Source of the DNA: a virus
Taxonomy: Duplodnaviria; Heunggongvirae; Uroviricota; Caudoviricetes
DNA: 9,399 nucleotides
IMG/VR virus record: IMGVR_UViG_2667527789_000017
Strand: one strand, 5' to 3'
Position numbers and translations under genes: made by a program. This document shows, piece after piece, positions 1 to 7,247 of the stretch (position 1 is its first letter; each line of letters begins with the position of its first letter). The notes beneath the pieces were generated by a model. That model was not told the DNA's origin and ran no database searches. It was given only the letters and a program-made list of their open reading frames with translations.

Positions 1-1251
1 GTGCTTACCGATACAAAATTAAAAAACCTCAAGCCGCAGGACAAACTGTACAAGGTCTCCGATCGTGACGGGCTGTATGTAGCTGTGCTTACGTCAGGCA
101 CGGTCTCGTTTCGCTATGACTACCGTATCAACGGTCGTCGCGAAACACTGGTAATCGGGCAGTATGGGCGTGACGGTATCAGCCTGGCAGAAGCGCGAGA
201 AGAACTGATTGCTGCAAAGAAGCTGCTTAAAGCAGGCCAGTCACCGGCTGCGGCTAAACGTGACGGTATCAAAAAGATTCGTGGTGCCGAGACGTTTACG
301 GTACATACCGACAGTTATATGAAACACGTCATCCTGGCTGACAGTACCCGCGCAATGAAGCAGGCGGTGATCGACCGTGACATACTTCCAGTTCTTGGCA
401 ACAAAATGATGACTGAAATTACCACATCGATGGTTCGTGATTTGTGTGACCGGATTGTCGAACGCGGTGGCCGGGCAACAGCAGTGCAGGCCAGGGAGAT
501 CATCAGCAGCGTATACCGTCACGCCAATGACCGTGGTCATGGTTTGTTTAATCCTGCGGCTGATATTAAGCCTTCATCTATCGCCATATTTAAACCACGA
601 GAGCGAACGCTGACACCAGAAGAAATTGGTCTTTTCTTCCGCACGCTGGATGCCATTGGTGCTATGGGCACTATGAAAATGGCTTTAAAACTGGTGCTTA
701 TCACTATGGTTCGTAAGGGCGAATTCACCAATGCAACGTGGGATGAAATAGATTTTAAAAAATGGACATGGACAATTCCTTCAGACCGCATGAAGGGAAG
801 CCGGGCGCATGTTATTTACCTGCCTAAACAGGCACAGGATATATTGGTCGGGTTGCAGATGTGCGCTGGTGGAAGTGAATATCTGGTTCCTGGTCGTTAC
901 AATTTCCGGAAGCCATTATCTAATGCCGCGCTGAACTCTCTGATCGACAGAACGGTGAAAATAATAAATGAAGATGGTGAGCATATTCAGGATTTTACCG
1001 TACACGATATGCGCCGTACAGCCAGTACGTTGTTGCATGAGGCTGGTTATCCTTCAGACTGGATTGAAAAGGCTCTGGCACATGAGCAGAAAGGTGTGCG
1101 CGCCGTATATAACAAAGCGGAATACGCCAGACAGCGCGCCTGGATGTTGCAGCAGTGGGCCGATATGATTGATTCCTGGATTGACGGGGAGCATACGGAT
1201 CTGATTCCGTTCTCCCCGTCGAAGTTTGAGAAGTGGATGGCGGGGGAATAA
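1..1251 (+). CDS. int: Tyrosine recombinase / phage integrase (P4/CP4-57-like)
   Basis: 416-codon ORF from GTG at 1 to TAA at 1249-1251; the true start may lie at or just upstream of the window edge. C-terminal region has tyrosine-recombinase signatures (VHDMRRTASTLLHEAGY with HxxR, and RAVYNKAEYARQR as candidate catalytic Tyr). N-terminus MLTDTKLKNLKP...RYDYRINGRR resembles the arm-binding domain of P4-type integrases. Confidence 0.9.
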   Translation: MLTDTKLKNLKPQDKLYKVSDRDGLYVAVLTSGTVSFRYDYRINGRRETLVIGQYGRDGISLAEAREELIAAKKLLKAGQSPAAAKRDGIKKIRGAETFTVHTDSYMKHVILADSTRAMKQAVIDRDILPVLGNKMMTEITTSMVRDLCDRIVERGGRATAVQAREIISSVYRHANDRGHGLFNPAADIKPSSIAIFKPRERTLTPEEIGLFFRTLDAIGAMGTMKMALKLVLITMVRKGEFTNATWDEIDFKKWTWTIPSDRMKGSRAHVIYLPKQAQDILVGLQMCAGGSEYLVPGRYNFRKPLSNAALNSLIDRTVKIINEDGEHIQDFTVHDMRRTASTLLHEAGYPSDWIEKALAHEQKGVRAVYNKAEYARQRAWMLQQWADMIDSWIDGEHTDLIPFSPSKFEKWMAGE

Positions 1252-1254
1252 CGT

Positions 1255-1449
1255 TTAATTATTCTGCTGATTTTCTTCCATCTCGGCTTCTGCTGCCAGT
1301 GATTCAATTTTATCTGTGAATATTGCTGACAGTGCTGCAAATTCAGCATCAGTGACAGCGGGAATTGGAACAAACCTGATCCCGCTGTGTGCAAGCATGT
1401 TTGCAGTTTCAAGGCATTTCCTTAAATCTGCTGGTGATGCCCTGTTCAT
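1255..1449 (-). CDS. Hypothetical small protein (64 aa), last gene of the leftward operon
   Basis: ATG at 1449-1447 overlaps the TGA stop of the upstream methyltransferase gene (ATGA overlap, + strand tcat at 1446-1449). Stop TAA at 1257-1255, 3 bp from the int stop. The longer 104-aa form from 1569 would overlap the methylase by 124 bp and is less likely. No recognisable family. Confidence 0.45.
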   Translation of the reverse strand: MNRASPADLRKCLETANMLAHSGIRFVPIPAVTDAEFAALSAIFTDKIESLAAEAEMEENQQNN

Positions 1450-2096
1450 GCTGCACGCTCCCGCCCCTGGTTGTCTGTTGGTGACAGCGGAGCATTGCTG
1501 AATGCATTTGTTAATCTGGTAATATCCAACGCGTATCCAGGGGTTAGTTGCACTGCCGGGTCTTCGCACTGATTACCCCAAACATCGAAGCCATGAGACG
1601 ACTGGCGGGCGAACAGTTCAATGCGAGAAACATCGCCTAACAATTGCACAAGTTTTTCGCGAACGACATCTGGTTTTCTTGAATGCTCAAGCCGCGGTGC
1701 GGTAAATGACTGAACGATCCCTGCATTAATGCGCGGAGGTAGTTTTCCCTTTACTGCAAACAGGCAATCTTCACTATTGGCGCGAGTCATGTGTCCCATA
1801 CCCATAACCAGTTTATCTGGTTGTCGACTACCACATTTTATCCACGTGAAGCCCTTCATGGTCATCAGACGGAATCCCCAGGCTTCAACAACTTTTAGCG
1901 CTTCGAGTGGTTGTGTTGGCACCCACCACATGGCCAACAGACAGTTTTCATCGGCCAAATCCCACACAGGAAGGCGGCAGATATCCAGCACACTCATAAC
2001 CGGATATTTAAAACCGGCACCGCGATTACCATCTGCGGCTTTATCCCGGTATACCCAGGGTGGATCTGCATAGATTAGCGTGTATTTCTTAGTCAT
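1446..2096 (-). CDS. MT-A70-family DNA N6-adenine methyltransferase
   Basis: 216-aa ORF; N-terminal YTLIYADPPWVY carries the DPPW catalytic motif characteristic of MT-A70-type adenine methyltransferases. SD-like GGGGTGG a few nt upstream of ATG at 2096. No adjacent restriction endonuclease candidate, so it appears to be an orphan methylase. Confidence 0.85.
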   Translation of the reverse strand: MTKKYTLIYADPPWVYRDKAADGNRGAGFKYPVMSVLDICRLPVWDLADENCLLAMWWVPTQPLEALKVVEAWGFRLMTMKGFTWIKCGSRQPDKLVMGMGHMTRANSEDCLFAVKGKLPPRINAGIVQSFTAPRLEHSRKPDVVREKLVQLLGDVSRIELFARQSSHGFDVWGNQCEDPAVQLTPGYALDITRLTNAFSNAPLSPTDNQGRERAA

Positions 2097-2340
2097 AAAC
2101 CACCCCGCAACATCCTATGCCGCTATAGTCGCCACGGCGAAGGCCGTTACCTTTTGTGATACATTGGTCCCTGCGAACCGCGATCCTTGCACGCTCAACA
2201 TCACCAGAAGCAACATCCATACACTGAAGCCAAAGGTGGGCAGCAATGCGGAACTGCCCTTTTTTCTCTCTTTCAATCGCGCGTTTTTCGATCTCTATCG
2301 CCGCAGGAGTAACGGCAACAACCTTTGAAGGGCTGCGCAT
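2089..2340 (-). CDS. Hypothetical small protein (83 aa; alternative GTG start at 2388 gives 99 aa)
   Basis: ORF overlaps the methylase start by 8 bp. ATG at 2340 is preceded by AAGG with 5-nt spacing; alternative GTG at 2388 is preceded by GAGAGGG with 9-nt spacing. No recognisable domain; start choice unresolved. Confidence 0.4.
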   Translation of the reverse strand: MRSPSKVVAVTPAAIEIEKRAIEREKKGQFRIAAHLWLQCMDVASGDVERARIAVRRDQCITKGNGLRRGDYSGIGCCGVVYD

Positions 2341-2497
2341 TGAAACCTTGTTCATGTGATATTTTTCAAGTCGGCTTAACTTTCTCACTTAATCCAACCC
2401 TCTCTGAAAATTAATGCCAGCAGATAAAGCCATGCTGAAACAGAGGCCAGGAATAAGTACCATCCTGACCATTTGCTCCAGTGCCTTAGCAGCACAC

Positions 2498-2746
2498 TCA
2501 TGCCGCGTTGCTCACAGGACGATATACACGTTGCTGAACAGGAGGTTTTTTACCCTGGAACTCTGCCGGGCTTGCTGCCTGACGTTCATCAAGCCAACGC
2601 TCAACTTCATCACGGTTCCATGCGCAGCGTTTGTCAGTGATATACCAGCGTTTAGGAAATTCCCCTGCGCGCTCCATACGGTCGATAGTGCTCCATGACA
2701 GTGGCACCACCGCCAGGAGTTCCTTCTTACCTAATGCACCTTTCAT
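2498..2746 (-). CDS. AlpA/Xis-family excisionase-like DNA-binding protein
   Basis: 82-aa ORF; LSWSTIDRMERAGEFPKRWYITDKRCAWNRDEVERWLDER matches the AlpA / phage excisionase winged-helix signature (S-x-S-T-I-x-R..FP...W...E-V-E-x-W-L). SD GAGAGG 5 nt upstream of ATG at 2746. Confidence 0.8.
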   Translation of the reverse strand: MKGALGKKELLAVVPLSWSTIDRMERAGEFPKRWYITDKRCAWNRDEVERWLDERQAASPAEFQGKKPPVQQRVYRPVSNAA

Positions 2747-2768
2747 AAATACCTCTCTTGGTTGCAGT

Positions 2769-2787
2769 GCGGCGCGCGTGGCGCCGC
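2769..2787 (-). other. GC-rich hairpin between bet stop and xis-like start (7-bp stem GCGGCGC/GCGCCGC, 5-nt loop)
   Basis: Perfect inverted repeat gcggcgc(2769-2775) gcgtg gcgccgc(2781-2787). No U-run follows on either strand, so it is not a canonical intrinsic terminator; possible RNA processing or attenuation structure. Confidence 0.4.
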
Positions 2788-2795
2788 GGTGGTGG

Positions 2796-3677
2796 TTACA
2801 TAGATGTTTCGTTTAATTCTTCCCGACAAACGCTGTAAACGTCGGTGGCTTTTGCCAGCAGTTCGTCATCATCTGAAAGTTTTTGTGCAATGTATTTGTA
2901 AGCCTTATCCAGTTCGGAGACAGTGCTGTAATTCATCGCTGCGCTGGTAAAGGCCATCAGCATTTCTTCTGGATCACGGCTATCCGCTTTACGCGTTTGC
3001 TCATCATGCTTTTTCGCTGGTTTAGCGTTGATCAGACTGTTCATTCCCGCAGCAGTAGTCGTTTGCGGAGTAATGTCTCGCTCAACACGCGGTGCCGTTT
3101 CCTGTAATTCGTCAGGGGTGTAAACACCGAGAAGCACATCAGGAGCGTGCAGGCGAGCCCATCGTTTCGTGCAAAGATAGGCAAGCTGCTGGCGCGGATC
3201 CTGTTCCCACAATGGAGAGTTACGCACTCCGGCTTGCGCCATACTGATGGTAAGCTCACGGGGTTCTGCTTCTCCTTTAAGAACTGCTGACACAGTTACC
3301 GTCAGATTCGGTGATTTATCTGTTTTGCCGTTAACATTCGACCAGTCACCGCTCCAGCGATAATTCAGGCGTGTCGCTAGCAGGCTGGAAGAGGATACGA
3401 CCGCGTTTACCAACTGTGCTTCGTAGCCTAACGTTCCGTTTACCACATGCGTTTTCTGCGCCACGGCGAAAGGGTTCATTCCCCACTGTGCCGCCTGCAT
3501 GGTCACCGCCAGACAATCGGCAGGTTTGCCTTCAAGATGTTTCGGTACAGTCGCTTTGCTTTGTGACATCAACTCCGCGAAACGCACCAGTTGATTCATG
3601 CCCTCCGGGCTGAAGATTGCCGCAGCAGTACCTACAGTTGCGCCTGGTTGTGATGTGATTGCGATATCATTGCTCAT
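2796..3677 (-). CDS. bet: Bet/Redbeta-family single-strand annealing protein (RecT superfamily)
   Basis: 293-aa ORF; local similarity by eye to lambda Bet (window NPFAVAQK... / RQQLAYLCTKRWARLHAPDVLLGVYTPDELQE / RVERDITPQ versus lambda NPWTKEIYAF... / MLRHKAMIQCARLAFGFAGIYDKDEAER / ERQPERDITP). ATG at 3677 overlaps the exonuclease stop (ATGA). Confidence 0.85.
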   Translation of the reverse strand: MSNDIAITSQPGATVGTAAAIFSPEGMNQLVRFAELMSQSKATVPKHLEGKPADCLAVTMQAAQWGMNPFAVAQKTHVVNGTLGYEAQLVNAVVSSSSLLATRLNYRWSGDWSNVNGKTDKSPNLTVTVSAVLKGEAEPRELTISMAQAGVRNSPLWEQDPRQQLAYLCTKRWARLHAPDVLLGVYTPDELQETAPRVERDITPQTTTAAGMNSLINAKPAKKHDEQTRKADSRDPEEMLMAFTSAAMNYSTVSELDKAYKYIAQKLSDDDELLAKATDVYSVCREELNETSM

Positions 3678-4495
3678 ACGTACATATCCTGTTTACGTGC
3701 CCAGTCAGGGCGTTTAATAATTTCCACTCCGCCCCACTCATCGTTGATGCGGCATTCGTGATAGGTATTCAGATCCCGGCGGAACAGAGCGTGCCCGGCA
3801 TCGACATCCGGCGCATCCAGCTCGAACACGCGTACCGGATACCGACCACAATCAATGCTTTCGCTCACGGCAAGAAAGAAAAAACCATGCGGCTGACCAG
3901 TAACCCTCATTGCGCCTTCGCGGTACATTGCGTCCTGCACGTGGTAGCGGAATTCCTCGATGTGGCGTGCAAAACGGTCCATATCTGCAACCTTTTTCAC
4001 GTCGACGATCACGTTGTGCTCGTTCAGCCATTTGTCTGGACGAATGCGGCACAACTCACCAGTATCTTCATCGTTCCAGTACATTGATGCTTCGCAGTAA
4101 CCAGGTGCTTCCAGCATCCAGCGTGCCGCCGGGTGAGCCATTGCGCTATCACGCATCATCTCCAGTTTCCGCCACTGCTCGGCATCAAGTACCGTAATCC
4201 CCATATCCGCCACATCACGAAGAAATGCCTCTTCGTCAGCTTTACCTTGTTTCGTCCGACGATCGAATTTCGGTGAAACAATGAAGCGTTTGTCGAACTC
4301 TCCAGGCTCCAGAAGCAGACAGTGCAATGCGGTTCCCATATCCAGTGCAGACTTTTTCTCTTCGTCTTCTGGTGCTGCCTGAACCCATTTAAGAAGCGCC
4401 GGATTCTTGGCAACCATGTCCAGTTGCGACTTACTCACGCCGTCACCGGCGTGGTAGTCTTCGTTGCTGATGTCGAAATAAATTCCCGGTTTCAT
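3674..4495 (-). CDS. RecE-like PD-(D/E)XK exonuclease (exonuclease VIII C-terminal-domain type)
   Basis: 273-aa ORF beginning MKPGIYFDISNEDYHAGDGVSKSQL, the typical N-terminal signature of the short RecE-like / PDDEXK phage exonucleases; candidate catalytic residues in RIRPD ... IVDVKK (D ... D-x-K). Directly upstream of and translationally coupled to the annealing-protein gene. Confidence 0.8.
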   Translation of the reverse strand: MKPGIYFDISNEDYHAGDGVSKSQLDMVAKNPALLKWVQAAPEDEEKKSALDMGTALHCLLLEPGEFDKRFIVSPKFDRRTKQGKADEEAFLRDVADMGITVLDAEQWRKLEMMRDSAMAHPAARWMLEAPGYCEASMYWNDEDTGELCRIRPDKWLNEHNVIVDVKKVADMDRFARHIEEFRYHVQDAMYREGAMRVTGQPHGFFFLAVSESIDCGRYPVRVFELDAPDVDAGHALFRRDLNTYHECRINDEWGGVEIIKRPDWARKQDMYV

Positions 4496-6217: not shown

Positions 6218-6430
6218 TTGAAGATAGTAACCAGAATGGAGGCCGCAAAAGCCGGGTTAAATCGCTATTTCACAGGAAAGCGGTGCCGTCACGGCCATCT
6301 CTCTGAAAGGTATGTTCTGAACGGAACATGTGTTGAATGTGCAATGAATAGCGCCAACCGCCATCGTAATGAATTTGCTTGTGCACTAAAGAGTGCAAGA
6401 GGGGAAACCTATGGCAAGCAGCTGGATTAA
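6218..6430 (+). CDS. Small protein with putative zinc-binding motif (C-x-H-x-H ... C-x2-C), function unknown
   Basis: 70-aa ORF from TTG at 6218 preceded by AAAGGGG 8 nt upstream; an internal ATG at 6236 has no SD. Motif GKRCRHGHLSERYVLNGTCVEC. Occupies the position between cro and the replication genes where lambda has cII, but shows no similarity to CII. 3' end overlaps the next gene by 20 nt. Confidence 0.5.
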   Translation: MKIVTRMEAAKAGLNRYFTGKRCRHGHLSERYVLNGTCVECAMNSANRHRNEFACALKSARGETYGKQLD

Positions 6431-7247
6431 GGTTGAAGTTATCACTCCTGATAAACCTGAAATTTTTCAGATAGCAGAAATTCTGGGTATTGATCCAGAT
6501 GCTGTTCTTGGAAAGCTGGTTCGTATATGGGCATGGGCTGACCAGCAAACAATAGACGGTAACGCTGGCAGCGTTACAAAAGGAGTACTTGATAGACTCG
6601 CTTTTATTACAGGATTTGCTGACGCCCTCATTAGCGTCGGATGGCTTGCTTATCATGACGGTAAACTAATTCTTCCAAACTTTGAGCGACACAATGGAGA
6701 ATCATCGAAAAAACGTGCACTTACGAATAGAAGAGTGGCAGAGCATCGAAAACGAGTAACGCAAAAAGTAACGCCAACAGCGTTACAAAAGGAGTTACCA
6801 GAGGAAGAGGAAGAGGAAGAGGAAGATATATATAAAACCCCACACATAGCGCACGTGCGCGAGGGTGCTCCGACCAGTGAAGCGAACGGTATGCCGTTGC
6901 AGGTGGCTGAACCTGAATTTCTGGATGGCCTGAGTGAACCCATCGGGAAATTTCCGATGACCGATGGTTGGCATCCGTCGCCGGATTTTCGACGGCGTGC
7001 TGTGCTGTGGGGAACGGCCCTGCCGGAACCGGAATTTACACCTGCTGAACTTGCTGCATTCCGGGATTACTGGATGGCTGAGGGCAAAGTGTTCACGCAG
7101 GTTCAGTGGGAACAAAAATTCGCCAGGCACGTAAATCATATCAGGGGAAAATCAAAAAACGCCGGGAAAAGCGATGAGCTTGACTGGAATAACACTGACT
7201 GGATAGAAGGGGTGTGGGATGAAATCAACTCCAGAACTTCTCAATGA
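6411..7247 (+). CDS. Replication initiation protein: phage replisome-organiser-like N-terminal region fused to a DnaT-like C-terminal domain
   Basis: ATG at 6411 preceded by AAGAGGGG with 6-nt spacing; the ORF-track start at 6393 has no SD. C-terminal IGKFPMTDGWHPSPDFRRRAVLWGTALPEPEFTPAELAAFRDYWMAEGKVFTQVQWEQKFARH aligns by eye with E. coli DnaT [61 protein letters not shown]. N-terminal SWIKVEVITPDKPEIFQIAEILGIDPDAVLGKLVRIWAWADQ resembles phage replisome-organiser N-domains. Central poly-Glu linker. Confidence 0.85.
   Translation: MASSWIKVEVITPDKPEIFQIAEILGIDPDAVLGKLVRIWAWADQQTIDGNAGSVTKGVLDRLAFITGFADALISVGWLAYHDGKLILPNFERHNGESSKKRALTNRRVAEHRKRVTQKVTPTALQKELPEEEEEEEEDIYKTPHIAHVREGAPTSEANGMPLQVAEPEFLDGLSEPIGKFPMTDGWHPSPDFRRRAVLWGTALPEPEFTPAELAAFRDYWMAEGKVFTQVQWEQKFARHVNHIRGKSKNAGKSDELDWNNTDWIEGVWDEINSRTSQ
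6559..6577. repeat. Inverted repeat GTAACGC-TGGCA-GCGTTAC followed by AAAAGGAGT (copy 1 of intragenic repeat)
   Basis: Directly read; 7-bp arms with 5-bp spacer, inside the replication-initiator gene. Confidence 0.7.
6756..6786. repeat. GTAACGC half-site (6756-6762) plus inverted repeat GTAACGC-CAACA-GCGTTAC (6768-6786) followed by AAAAGGAGT (copy 2)
   Basis: Shares GTAACGC ... CAGCGTTACAAAAGGAGT with copy 1 but sits in a different codon phase of the same gene (copy 1 starts at codon position 2, copy 2 at position 1), so the repeat is conserved at the DNA level rather than the protein level. Confidence 0.7.
6801..6824 (+). repeat. Hexanucleotide tandem repeat (GAGGAA)x4 encoding a poly-Glu linker
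   Basis: gaggaagaggaagaggaagaggaa read directly; translates as EEEEEEEE in the initiator gene and is followed by AT-rich GATATATATATAAAA. Confidence 0.9.
6849..6860. repeat. Perfect 12-bp palindrome GCGCACGTGCGC
   Basis: Read directly; lies just downstream of the AT-rich stretch inside the initiator gene. Confidence 0.7.

Follow-up and report, generated by a model that had tools for sequence, protein, structure and literature searches.

An MT-A70-family adenine methyltransferase gene between PerC-family and DUF1382 genes in a phiV10/epsilon15-like prophage

The 9,399-nt stretch of viral DNA analysed in this study (the window) is a phiV10/epsilon15-like prophage (Uetakevirus) inserted next to guaA, and three overlapping ORFs, all on the minus strand, occupy its positions 1255–2388. 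They form an ordinary, known mosaic accessory module encoding a PerC-family protein, an MT-A70-family methyltransferase and a DUF1382 protein. We hold, with moderate confidence at best, that these are the last three genes of the early-left operon, that the methylase acts on DNA as a stand-alone enzyme and that the products of the two flanking genes are separate modulators. The trio has already been annotated; beyond that, the PerC-family protein is a candidate partner of the methylase, in the way that an unrelated upstream protein is in Shiga-toxin phages.

Gene arrangement and prophage context

The features of the stretch and its neighbours are listed in Table 1. The preliminary description of this DNA had placed an orphan MT-A70 methylase with a DPPW motif, coupled to a small ORF on either side, at the distal end of the early operon. 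All of this was borne out, the operon being the leftward one of a prophage: the Pfam score is 78.6 bits, DPPW occupies residues 11–14, the 5′ overlap measures 8 nt and the 3′ overlap is ATGA, and the next gene is that of the convergent integrase, the stop codon of which lies 3 nt from the DUF1382 stop codon. Upstream, the chain of overlapping genes extends from the AlpA-like gene through ATGA to the 38-aa ORF, homologues of which were found in six further genera, and from there through GTGA to the 99-aa PerC ORF. A simple scan of positions 1000–3000 found no promoter-like site.

Table 1 Features of the 1255–2388 stretch and its neighbours in the window
Feature	Position	Strand	Evidence or remark
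P4-type tyrosine integrase, convergent with the operon	1..1251	+	Pfam Arm-DNA-bind_3, Phage_integrase
DUF1382 / lambda Orf63-family protein, 64 aa	1255..1449	-	Pfam PF07131, PDB 8DSB
ATGA overlap, methylase stop / DUF1382 start	1446..1449	-	GGGAG Shine-Dalgarno-like motif 9 nt upstream
MT-A70-family N6-adenine methyltransferase (predicted activity), 216 aa	1446..2096	-	Pfam PF05063, PHROG 359, PADLOC MTase_II
Motif IV DPPW codons (methylase residues 11–14)	2055..2066	-	Translation
8-nt overlap ATGACTAA, PerC stop codon TAA inside the methylase start	2089..2096	-	ORF coordinates
PerC-family small protein, 99 aa, GTG start	2089..2388	-	Pfam PF06069, PHROG 868
38-aa ORF, homologue of phiV10p35 / epsilon15 gp32	2385..2501	-	Overlaps the AlpA-like gene (ATGA) and the PerC ORF (GTGA)
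AlpA-like excisionase/regulator, upstream backbone member	2498..2746	-	Pfam PF05930 (E=3e-5), PHROG 66

Taken by itself, the tight coupling to the methylase is weak evidence of partnership; many upstream genes of unrelated kinds also run into the methylase start, by −4, −1 or −8 nt. In the first 8 nt of the methylase gene, ATGACTAA, each of the other two frames meets a stop codon (TAA and TGA), which on reading-frame grounds would explain the −4 and −8 overlaps.

Among 5,426 complete E. coli genomes, 539 (~10%) contain the 1134-nt stretch at 95–99% identity, with a coverage of at least 80% in 514 of the 539, and it was also found in 17 phage records. Because of this recurrence, the three ORFs can safely be regarded as real genes and not chance reading frames. 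In E. coli chromosomes, guaA adjoins the integrase gene. The trio corresponds to PhiV10p34-p33-p32 of phiV10 (NC_007804), with like order and overlaps and 97–98% nucleotide identity; phiV10 and RefSeq label the products PerC-family activator, DNA methyltransferase and DUF1382. The module is also present in TL-2011b, the O157 typing phages 9 and 10 and RefSeq E. coli prophages, and the phiV10-type records differ in nothing material, only in the annotated PerC start (83, 88 or 99 aa). The terminase of phiV10 was also seen to resemble P1 PacB. No experimental study of the phiV10-type trio genes was found in the literature, and a search for the phiV10 methylase, Hia5 and MT-A70 phage enzymes yielded nothing specific except the work on phage phiPA8 discussed below (PMC10810198).

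The backbone of these phages reads exo–RecT–AlpA–38-aa ORF–PerC–variable cassettes–int, and in the window the variable slot holds the MT-A70 adenine methyltransferase and the lambda-Orf63-type gene. The region plays the part of the lambda exo-xis accessory region.

Assignment of the three genes

The methylase matches Pfam MT-A70 (PF05063) with E=7e-22 and 78.6 bits (cut-off 23.9); its residues 5–176 cover the whole profile (positions 1–172 of 172). It consists of the catalytic domain only, followed by a variable C-terminal tail of 40 aa, and carries no accessory domains. It also matches PHROG 359 ('DNA methyltransferase', E=7e-120) and receives the PADLOC label MTase_II (E=9e-77). By sequence, its top PDB hits are MT-A70 proteins of ciliates (E=3.5e-13) and METTL3, and its DPPW aligns with that of the ciliate MT-A70 protein in PDB 7f4r. 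The protein is predicted to be an active class-beta N6-adenine methyltransferase. M.EcoGII was ruled out as its identity: that enzyme has 349 aa, DPPY and a central target-recognition region, in contrast to 216 aa, DPPW and a match to Pfam MT-A70 here. The absence of a restriction partner, as previously described, was confirmed. Among the neighbours, PADLOC flags the methylase alone, no restriction-system endonuclease appears in Pfam or RefSeq names across the rest of the window, and none is annotated in the complete phiV10 genome. No cognate endonuclease gene adjoins the methylase as it would in a type II restriction-modification system.

The two flanking ORFs, considered unassignable in the preliminary description, were assigned by HMM searches to PerC (PF06069) and DUF1382 (PF07131). 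The upstream ORF scored 30.1 bits against the PerC cut-off of 22.6 (E=6e-7), over profile positions 5–50 of 90 only, and PHROG 868 covers all of its residues (1–99 of 99, E=6.5e-62). The NCBIfam ANR model (NF033650) remained under its cut-off on this ORF (23.6 bits vs 32). Alternative ATG codons would give proteins of 88 or 83 aa, but the real length is, on comparative grounds, 99 aa from a GTG start. This start codon is GTG in 79 of 80 and TTG in 1 of 80 related loci, as counted, like the arrangements, in an IMG/VR scan with the PerC alignment that returned near-identical phiV10-like loci only. Its first 16 residues are conserved from genus to genus. Like the PerC, Pch and ANR regulators of EPEC, EHEC and EAEC, a family characterised by transcriptional activation, for example of ler/LEE, the protein is small and all-helical with the Pfam PerC helical core, and differs from them by a conserved N-terminal segment of 25 aa and by the C-terminal tail Y-S-G-I...GVVYD. 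The predicted fold is a short N-terminal helix and three helices, followed by this conserved tail, which would be disordered. The AF2 model (pLDDT 72.8) is an MIT/TPR-like helical bundle and not a DNA-binding fold, and the best Foldseek matches, which were not significant, are MIT/TPR-like as well. In the phage collection searched, the PerC subfamily of the window occurs in epsilon15-like phages only. A tblastn search of phages with a divergent PerC-like protein gave no useful matches.

The downstream 64-aa ORF matches PF07131 over its full length (positions 1–60 of 60; E=2e-30, 105 bits vs 27) and is 48% identical to lambda Orf63 over the full length, with PDB 8DSB, the structure of lambda Orf63, as a match (E=3e-12). 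The lambda record annotates orf63 as DUF1382 and orf60a as DUF1317, and an assignment of the 64-aa ORF to orf60a was therefore wrong. Both genes lie in an early-left accessory region, the exo-xis region in the case of lambda. Of the lambda Orf63 residues, E36 and K47 are conserved in the window protein, as are V27 and I29 of the core, whereas K54 is replaced by Glu. Lambda Orf63 has a pro-lytic effect, which is lost in the K54E variant; a hydrophobic cleft of the protein takes up an amphipathic helix, and binding to RNA was not excluded (PMC10869804).

Comparison with the Stx-phage enzyme and its PNB-2 partner

The closest studied enzyme is M.EcoPA8orf6770P of the Stx2a phage phiPA8, which forms a holoenzyme with PNB-2, the product of the gene directly upstream, at a ratio of 1:1 (Gong, Chakraborty and Koudelka, NAR 2024; PMC10810198). 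The purified phiPA8-type orthologue alone had almost no activity on DNA, dam− DNA included, and the methylase was active on 16S rRNA only with PNB-2. The holoenzyme preferred 16S rRNA and 30S subunits, the modified rRNA base not being identified. The methylase gene of phiPA8 raised spontaneous induction, and a Stx-phage orthologue with DPPW changed to APPA, supplied on a plasmid, did not complement the virulence defect of phiPA2. Overproduced M.EcoGV, a close homologue, methylated GATC in vivo (all PMC10810198), and GATC is also the REBASE prediction for the M.EcoGV-type family.

The two loci are alike in a leftward operon near the int end, a small upstream ORF overlapping the methylase start and a DUF1382 gene after it, and their catalytic subunits are orthologous and have DPPW. 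They differ in the upstream gene, PNB-2 in phiPA8 and PerC-family here, and in the backbone, that of a Stx lambdoid phage in phiPA8 and of an epsilon15-type podovirus here. The TL-2011c locus contains the exact phiPA8 terminator sequence quoted in PMC10810198, and the window methylase is identical to TL-2011c gp13 (M.EcoPA8orf6770P type) in 156 of 187 positions (83%, residues 1–187). After Pro-Gly 186–187 the tails diverge; the window tail has 47 aa from the FDVWGNQ motif, the Stx-phage tail 39 aa, and the two are unrelated. The STEC-type C-terminal segment of ~27 aa, proposed as needed for PNB-2 binding, is absent from the window methylase. Among the loci compared, C-terminal tails vary in no clear pattern with the type of partner.

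PNB-2 itself is absent, as its HMM had no match in the window at E<=1. BLASTP gave nothing between the PerC ORF and PNB-2 and hhalign of the two profiles gave a probability of 0.6%, so that the PerC ORF as a PNB-2 homologue was dropped, none of these comparisons detecting homology. The suggested role of one of the coupled ORFs as a specificity partner has a published precedent in PNB-2 of phiPA8 (PMC10810198). On comparison of the sequences the precedent does not transfer to the window, because PNB-2 is absent, PerC has no detectable homology to PNB-2 and DUF1382 does not travel with the methylase outside E. coli phages (0 of 40 species); moreover, PerC abuts the methylase only in some lineages. 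PNB-2 comprises 65 proteins vs 2,235 homologues of the methylase, which indicates that dependence on PNB-2 is the exception.

Substrate and partners of the methylase

Whether the three genes co-occur in other prophages was answered differently at two levels. Within E. coli the trio is kept together in the 539 genomes mentioned, but among 40 species-representative loci, found by a search with the methylase, its neighbours included DUF1382 in none and PNB-2 in none; PerC lay upstream in 13, and 27 had neither PerC nor DUF1382. The methylase was also seen beside genes for NinB, a DnaC-like protein, a replication protein and RusA. In relatives, each member of the trio assorts independently of the other two.

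The backbone slot of the MT-A70 gene can instead be filled by a C5+Dam fusion or by a gene of the phage Dam family (PF05869, a Pfam family other than PF05063); in sister prophages, the Dam-family gene stands between PerC and int. In Lonsdalea and Acerihabitans, C5 DNA methylases adjoin the MT-A70 gene. That Dam-family and C5 DNA methylases share the slot speaks for DNA as the probable substrate. In the explanation that we prefer, the trio would, by analogy, be silent in the lysogen and, after induction or infection, co-expressed from the early-left promoter through translational coupling. The methylase would belong to the M.EcoGV / M.EcoPA8orf6770P group and work alone, as a bare catalytic domain that methylates adenine at N6; lacking PNB-2, it would act mainly on DNA in a Dam-like (GATC-type) manner, so as to mark or protect replicating phage DNA. 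Its two neighbours, PerC-like and Orf63-like, would be separate modulators of early development. The phiV10 genome contains 153 GATC sites vs 152 expected, which is neutral, and no pac-like GATC cluster was found in it, so there is no sequence footprint of a GATC-directed function. Adenine methylation at a P1-like pac site was dropped as a candidate on the same grounds.

What counts against a stand-alone enzyme is that eukaryotic MT-A70 enzymes are generally heteromers. METTL3-METTL14 and the ciliate MTA1-MTA9-p1-p2 complex share the catalytic fold family and DPPW with the window methylase, and their need for non-catalytic partners is a precedent, although here there is no second MT-A70 paralogue and the protein is of 216 aa without accessory domains. 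The lone catalytic domain may need a partner in the window too, because the 83%-identical orthologue is almost inactive alone.

The best candidate for such a partner is the PerC ORF, which could be a non-homologous counterpart of PNB-2, co-translated as a small subunit that sets the activity or the choice between DNA and RNA; we consider this possible but rather unlikely. The ORF takes the position of PNB-2, the proven 1:1 partner of an enzyme with 83% identity. PerC-domain ORFs also overlap the methylase start by 4–10 nt in Dryocola, two species of Buttiauxella, Lonsdalea and Acerihabitans, in early-right lambdoid contexts unrelated to the epsilon15 backbone, and such abutment in several unrelated backbones hints at a link; all these loci came from methylase searches, however, so that the association lacks a background rate. 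Two of the lambdoid lineages have a winged-helix domain fused N-terminally to PerC, which is also how PNB-2 is predicted to be built, but these proteins gave an hhalign probability of 0.6% against PNB-2, colinear over 112 columns and not significant. The MIT/TPR-like bundle of the PerC model is of a protein-binding type and, with the conserved and putatively disordered C-terminal motif, would suit such a role. Homology of PerC and PNB-2 was not detectable, as stated above, and PerC is missing from 27 of the 40 methylase loci. Within the epsilon15-like backbone, 147–1,211 nt and other cassettes separate PerC from the methylase and Dam-family methylases follow PerC equally; epsilon15 itself has an extra ORF between PerC and methylase and is without DUF1382. 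In-frame PerC::methylase fusions occur, but as two rare clusters of 2–3 sequences each that resemble small deletions, and fusions were dropped as evidence of partnership. The extensions of other long methylase homologues are C-terminal and not N-terminal.

An unlikely extension of the same idea is that the PerC-family proteins with the Y-S-G-I tail are methyltransferase-associated in general, heading methylase cassettes (MT-A70, Dam-family and C5) in at least two unrelated backbones, and that the one in the window binds the MT-A70 enzyme in place of PNB-2 and determines its activity or substrate.

Similarly unlikely is that the methylase is primarily a 16S rRNA m6A enzyme which tunes translation and spontaneous prophage induction, DNA not being its main target. 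The catalytic core is 83% identical to that of the phiPA8-type enzyme, the holoenzyme of which favoured 16S rRNA and 30S subunits and the gene of which raised spontaneous induction (PMC10810198), and METTL3, an RNA m6A enzyme, is among the closest solved relatives by sequence. Nevertheless, the RNA preference came from PNB-2, which the window lacks, the proposed PNB-2-binding C-terminal region differs after residue 187, the modified base in rRNA was not identified in PMC10810198 and the slot is shared with Dam-family and C5 DNA methylases.

That the trio is decaying cargo of a cryptic prophage, without function, is very improbable. Prophage methylases are often silent in lysogens, but the three ORFs are intact and 95–99% conserved in more than 500 genomes, plaque-forming phages, phiV10 among them, carry them, the methylase retains its catalytic motif and the PerC start codon is kept (GTG 79/80, TTG 1/80). 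Weakest of all is DUF1382 as the methylase partner, a scarcely tenable reading which the comparative data bring close to refutation: despite the ATGA overlap in the window, the same order of methylase and then DUF1382 in Stx2 phages, and the helix-binding cleft of lambda Orf63 with RNA binding not excluded, DUF1382 adjoins the methylase in 0 of the 40 species loci, lies upstream of it in a Klebsiella-type relative and is replaced by a Ser/Thr phosphatase in E. coli variants, lambda has orf63 and no methylase annotated in its int-to-bet region, and the phiPA8 partner is the upstream and not the downstream gene.

As it stands, the assignment is routine annotation of a module present in a published phage genome and in about one tenth of the complete E. 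coli genomes. Its value lies in a natural comparison to the MT-A70/PNB-2 system of Stx phages, with the same catalytic core, another tail and another upstream gene, and it bears on how general partner dependence is among bacterial MT-A70 enzymes. The choice between DNA (GATC) and rRNA as the native substrate bears, in turn, on prophage induction in pathogenic E. coli.

Gene layout and family assignment

The 1134-nt stretch matches phage phiV10 and related phages at 97–98% identity and turned up in 539 of the 5,426 complete E. coli genomes searched; the window as a whole shows the same identity (97–98%) to a prophage adjoining guaA in many E. coli chromosomes. The module is previously known and annotated: its phiV10 equivalents are labelled as a PerC-family activator (PhiV10p34), a DNA methyltransferase (p33) and a DUF1382 protein (p32), and the RefSeq names agree for all three genes. 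The preliminary description placed three overlapping ORFs at 1255–2388, and every coordinate was right.

Table. Positions of the three module genes and their neighbours in the window
Feature	Position	Strand	Remarks
Integrase gene	1–1251	plus	Convergent with the operon
DUF1382 ORF, 64 aa	1255–1449	minus	
MT-A70 methylase ORF, 216 aa	1446–2096	minus	DPPW at residues 11–14 (nt 2055–2066)
PerC-family ORF, 99 aa	2089–2388	minus	GTG start; internal ATGs give 88 or 83 aa
38-aa ORF	2385–2501	minus	Homologue of phiV10p35 / epsilon15 gp32
AlpA-like gene	2498–2746		Upstream member of the overlap chain

The two flanking ORFs, previously thought unassignable, were both placed in families by profile searches. 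The upstream ORF belongs to the PerC family (Pfam E=6e-7, over the cut-off) and matches PHROG 868 ‘transcriptional activator’ over residues 1–99 of 99; it scores under the NCBIfam ANR cut-off. The downstream ORF is a DUF1382 member (Pfam E=2e-30; PDB 8DSB, E=3e-12) with 48% identity to lambda Orf63, which the lambda record also labels DUF1382. The methylase is of the MT-A70 type (Pfam E=7e-22, domain at residues 5–176; PHROG 359, E=7e-120; PADLOC MTase_II, E=9e-77), and its top PDB sequence matches are ciliate MT-A70 proteins and METTL3. It is an orphan, as was first supposed: no restriction enzyme is annotated across the complete phiV10 genome, and the methylase was the single meaningful match of the defence-system models in the window.

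The PerC-family ORF and the methylase overlap by 8 nt, ATGACTAA, and the methylase and the DUF1382 ORF by ATGA. This chain extends upstream, with an ATGA overlap between the AlpA-like gene and the 38-aa ORF and a GTGA overlap between the latter and the GTG start of the PerC-family ORF. Neither promoter-like nor minus-strand terminator-like sites were found inside 1000–3000, and the phiV10 record has a terminator only upstream, beside the repressor gene. The trio would be transcribed from the early-left promoter following induction or infection. The stop codons of the early-left operon (minus strand) and the integrase gene (plus strand) are 3 nt apart (1249–1257), no terminator-like hairpin was detected, and early-operon read-through would run antisense to int.

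The annotated length of the PerC-family ORF varies: PGAP gives it 83 aa, whereas it has 88 aa in the record of phiV10 and 99 aa in that of epsilon15. Its N-terminal 16 residues (M-x-K-L-S/T-R/K-L-E/Q-K-Y-H...) are conserved as protein sequence in Salmonella epsilon15, Superficieibacter, Scandinavium, Kluyvera and Pseudescherichia. Of 80 related viral contigs, 79 begin the ORF with GTG and the remaining one with TTG, likewise a start codon, and the PHROG match begins at residue 1. The 99-aa form, whose start overlaps the stop of the 38-aa ORF, is therefore favoured on sequence grounds. The 38-aa ORF, with one transmembrane helix predicted in the phiV10 record, is not called by PGAP in E. coli chromosomes, yet it is conserved in six other genera.

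Three further observations concern the replication and recombination genes. On the minus strand of the window, the RecE-C-terminal-like exonuclease (3674–4495) and RecT (2796–3677) are separate overlapping ORFs; the phiV10 record annotates them as a single fused 586-aa CDS. A perfect (AGAGGA)x4.5 tandem repeat at 6800–6826 encodes a poly-Glu run of the DnaT-like replication protein (6393–7247). In phiV10 (L152), direct repeats within the replication initiator gene at 33781–33900, two copies of TGAATGATCCCAAAAACGGGAT and three AACCAGTCATATAACC-like copies, look like origin iterons; they were seen in the phiV10 copy of the gene.

Independent assortment of the three genes

The contigs encoding PerC homologues share a backbone with the conserved order exo-RecT-AlpA-(38 aa)-PerC-[variable]-int, and the variable slot between PerC and int nearly always holds an adenine methyltransferase. 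Among the loci sampled, seven had an enzyme of the MT-A70 type, and eight had either a Dam-family (PF05869) enzyme or a C5+Dam fusion. The cassettes that may surround the methylase are DUF1317 (the family of lambda orf60a), DUF1382 (in one case upstream of the methylase), NinX, DUF4406 and unknown ORFs, and an E. coli variant retains PerC and the methylase with a Ser/Thr phosphatase in place of DUF1382. In the phage collection, the PerC subfamily of the window occurs only in epsilon15-like phages. Within the epsilon15-like prophages (L128–L145; slot equivalent to window 1255–2088), methylases of different Pfam families interchange at one position.

Forty loci from different species encoding the methylase at 55–91% identity were searched with profiles for PerC, PNB-2 (the partner of an Stx-phage methylase) and the methylase, and iteratively for DUF1382. 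This served to check, as first suggested, whether the three genes occur together in other prophages. A PerC-like ORF precedes the methylase on its strand in 13 of the 40 loci; DUF1382 adjoins it in none, and PNB-2 in none either. Seven of the 13 are epsilon15-like prophages, where a gap of 147–1,211 nt, occupied by other cassettes, separates the end of PerC from the methylase. The PerC-like ORF overlaps the methylase start in five (Dryocola, two Buttiauxella, Lonsdalea and Acerihabitans), and one more has a single small ORF between the two. Neither PerC nor DUF1382 was present in the other 27 loci. Here the methylase has neighbours such as NinB, a DnaC-like ATPase and a replication initiator on the upstream side and RusA on the downstream side, so that these loci belong to the nin region of lambdoid prophages. 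The module is thus a mosaic whose three accessory genes assort independently. The backbone with its interchangeable slot marks the region as the equivalent of the exo-xis accessory region of lambda, with the three genes as independent cassettes.

The tight coupling carries little information on partnership. Most methylase starts in the 40 loci overlap whichever gene precedes them by −4, −1 or −8 nt. The first 8 nt of the methylase, ATGACTAA, hold a stop codon in each of the two alternative frames (TGA and TAA), which would explain the −4 and −8 overlaps. Rare in-frame PerC::MT-A70 fusions (P0003 and P0004; 297 and 263 aa, each known from 2–3 sequences) look like the products of small deletions in or close to the 8-nt overlap.

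The Stx-phage methylase and its partner

The closest characterised relative of the module is the MT-A70/PNB-2 system of the Stx2a phage phiPA8 (Gong, Chakraborty and Koudelka, NAR 2024, PMC10810198), with only the catalytic subunit common to both systems. In phiPA8 this subunit is the MT-A70/DPPW enzyme M.EcoPA8orf6770P, which increases virulence and the spontaneous induction of the prophage; a plasmid with the wild-type gene made a phiPA2 lysogen virulent again, but the DPPW->APPA mutant did not. The enzyme purified alone is almost inactive on DNA or RNA. PNB-2, encoded directly upstream and co-transcribed, binds it 1:1, and the complex prefers 16S rRNA and 30S subunits (PMC10810198). The phiPA8 terminator sequence quoted there has an exact copy in phage TL-2011c just upstream of gp12, which identifies gp12 as PNB-2 and gp13 as the methylase. 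The window methylase is identical to gp13 at 156 of 187 residues (83%) and diverges completely past residue 187; it is thus a close relative of an enzyme with a genuine upstream specificity subunit.

This proven partner lends some substance to the idea that the flanking ORFs are specificity partners, but PNB-2 is absent here and the tail differs. PNB-2 is a small family (65 proteins, no Pfam domain), and a profile of 18 homologues had no match in the window. The C-terminal tail suspected by Gong et al. of PNB-2 binding is swapped for a different, longer one. The PNB-2 precedent does not transfer directly to the window. No homology of the PerC-like ORFs to PNB-2 was detected (profile-profile probability 0.6%). 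In Dryocola and Buttiauxella, the two-domain proteins of 147–170 aa encoded directly before the MT-A70 gene (L023, L026 and L028) have a C-terminal PerC-like domain and, in L023 and L026, weak N-terminal MarR-like winged-helix matches; their alignment with PNB-2 was colinear but not significant (0.6%).

Possible roles of the products

By homology, the Orf63-type protein would be a dimeric pro-lytic developmental factor that does not bind dsDNA. The K54E variant of lambda Orf63 does not enhance lytic development (PMC10869804); residue 54 is Glu in the window protein and Lys in lambda Orf63, so its activity may differ from that of lambda's.

As for the methylase, DNA is the favoured substrate, at about even odds. 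This reading is supported by the Dam-family and C5 DNA methylases that occupy the same variable slot in other loci, by the C5 DNA methylase genes adjoining the MT-A70 gene in Lonsdalea and Acerihabitans, and by GATC methylation in vivo by the close homologue M.EcoGV overproduced without PNB-2 (PMC10810198). Moreover, the RNA preference comes from PNB-2, which the window and most of the 2,235 methylase homologues lack. Against this stand the near inactivity of the orthologue by itself in vitro (PMC10810198) and the frequent partner dependence of MT-A70 enzymes.

Among loci retrieved by searching with the methylase, several unrelated backbones have a PerC-domain ORF abutting the MT-A70 gene. The Lonsdalea prophages have the order cro-cII-O-P-PerC-MT-A70 with the same 8-nt overlap as the window, and a cluster of PAPS-reductase, Dam and C5-methylase genes in Sodalis is preceded by a PerC-like gene. 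AF2 models the 99-aa protein (pLDDT 72.8) as a short helix at the N-terminus and three further helices; its closest structural matches are MIT/TPR-like and not significant, and its C-terminal tail is conserved and predicted to be disordered. These features are more in keeping with an adaptor that binds protein than with a DNA-binding role, and they leave some room, at low probability, for PerC as a non-homologous stand-in for PNB-2. Overall, the observation stands and the initial interpretation is supported in part: the methylase is an orphan with tightly overlapping ORFs, but these ORFs are assignable and PNB-2 is absent. The useful lead offered by the module is the comparison of the methylase alone with the methylase together with PerC.
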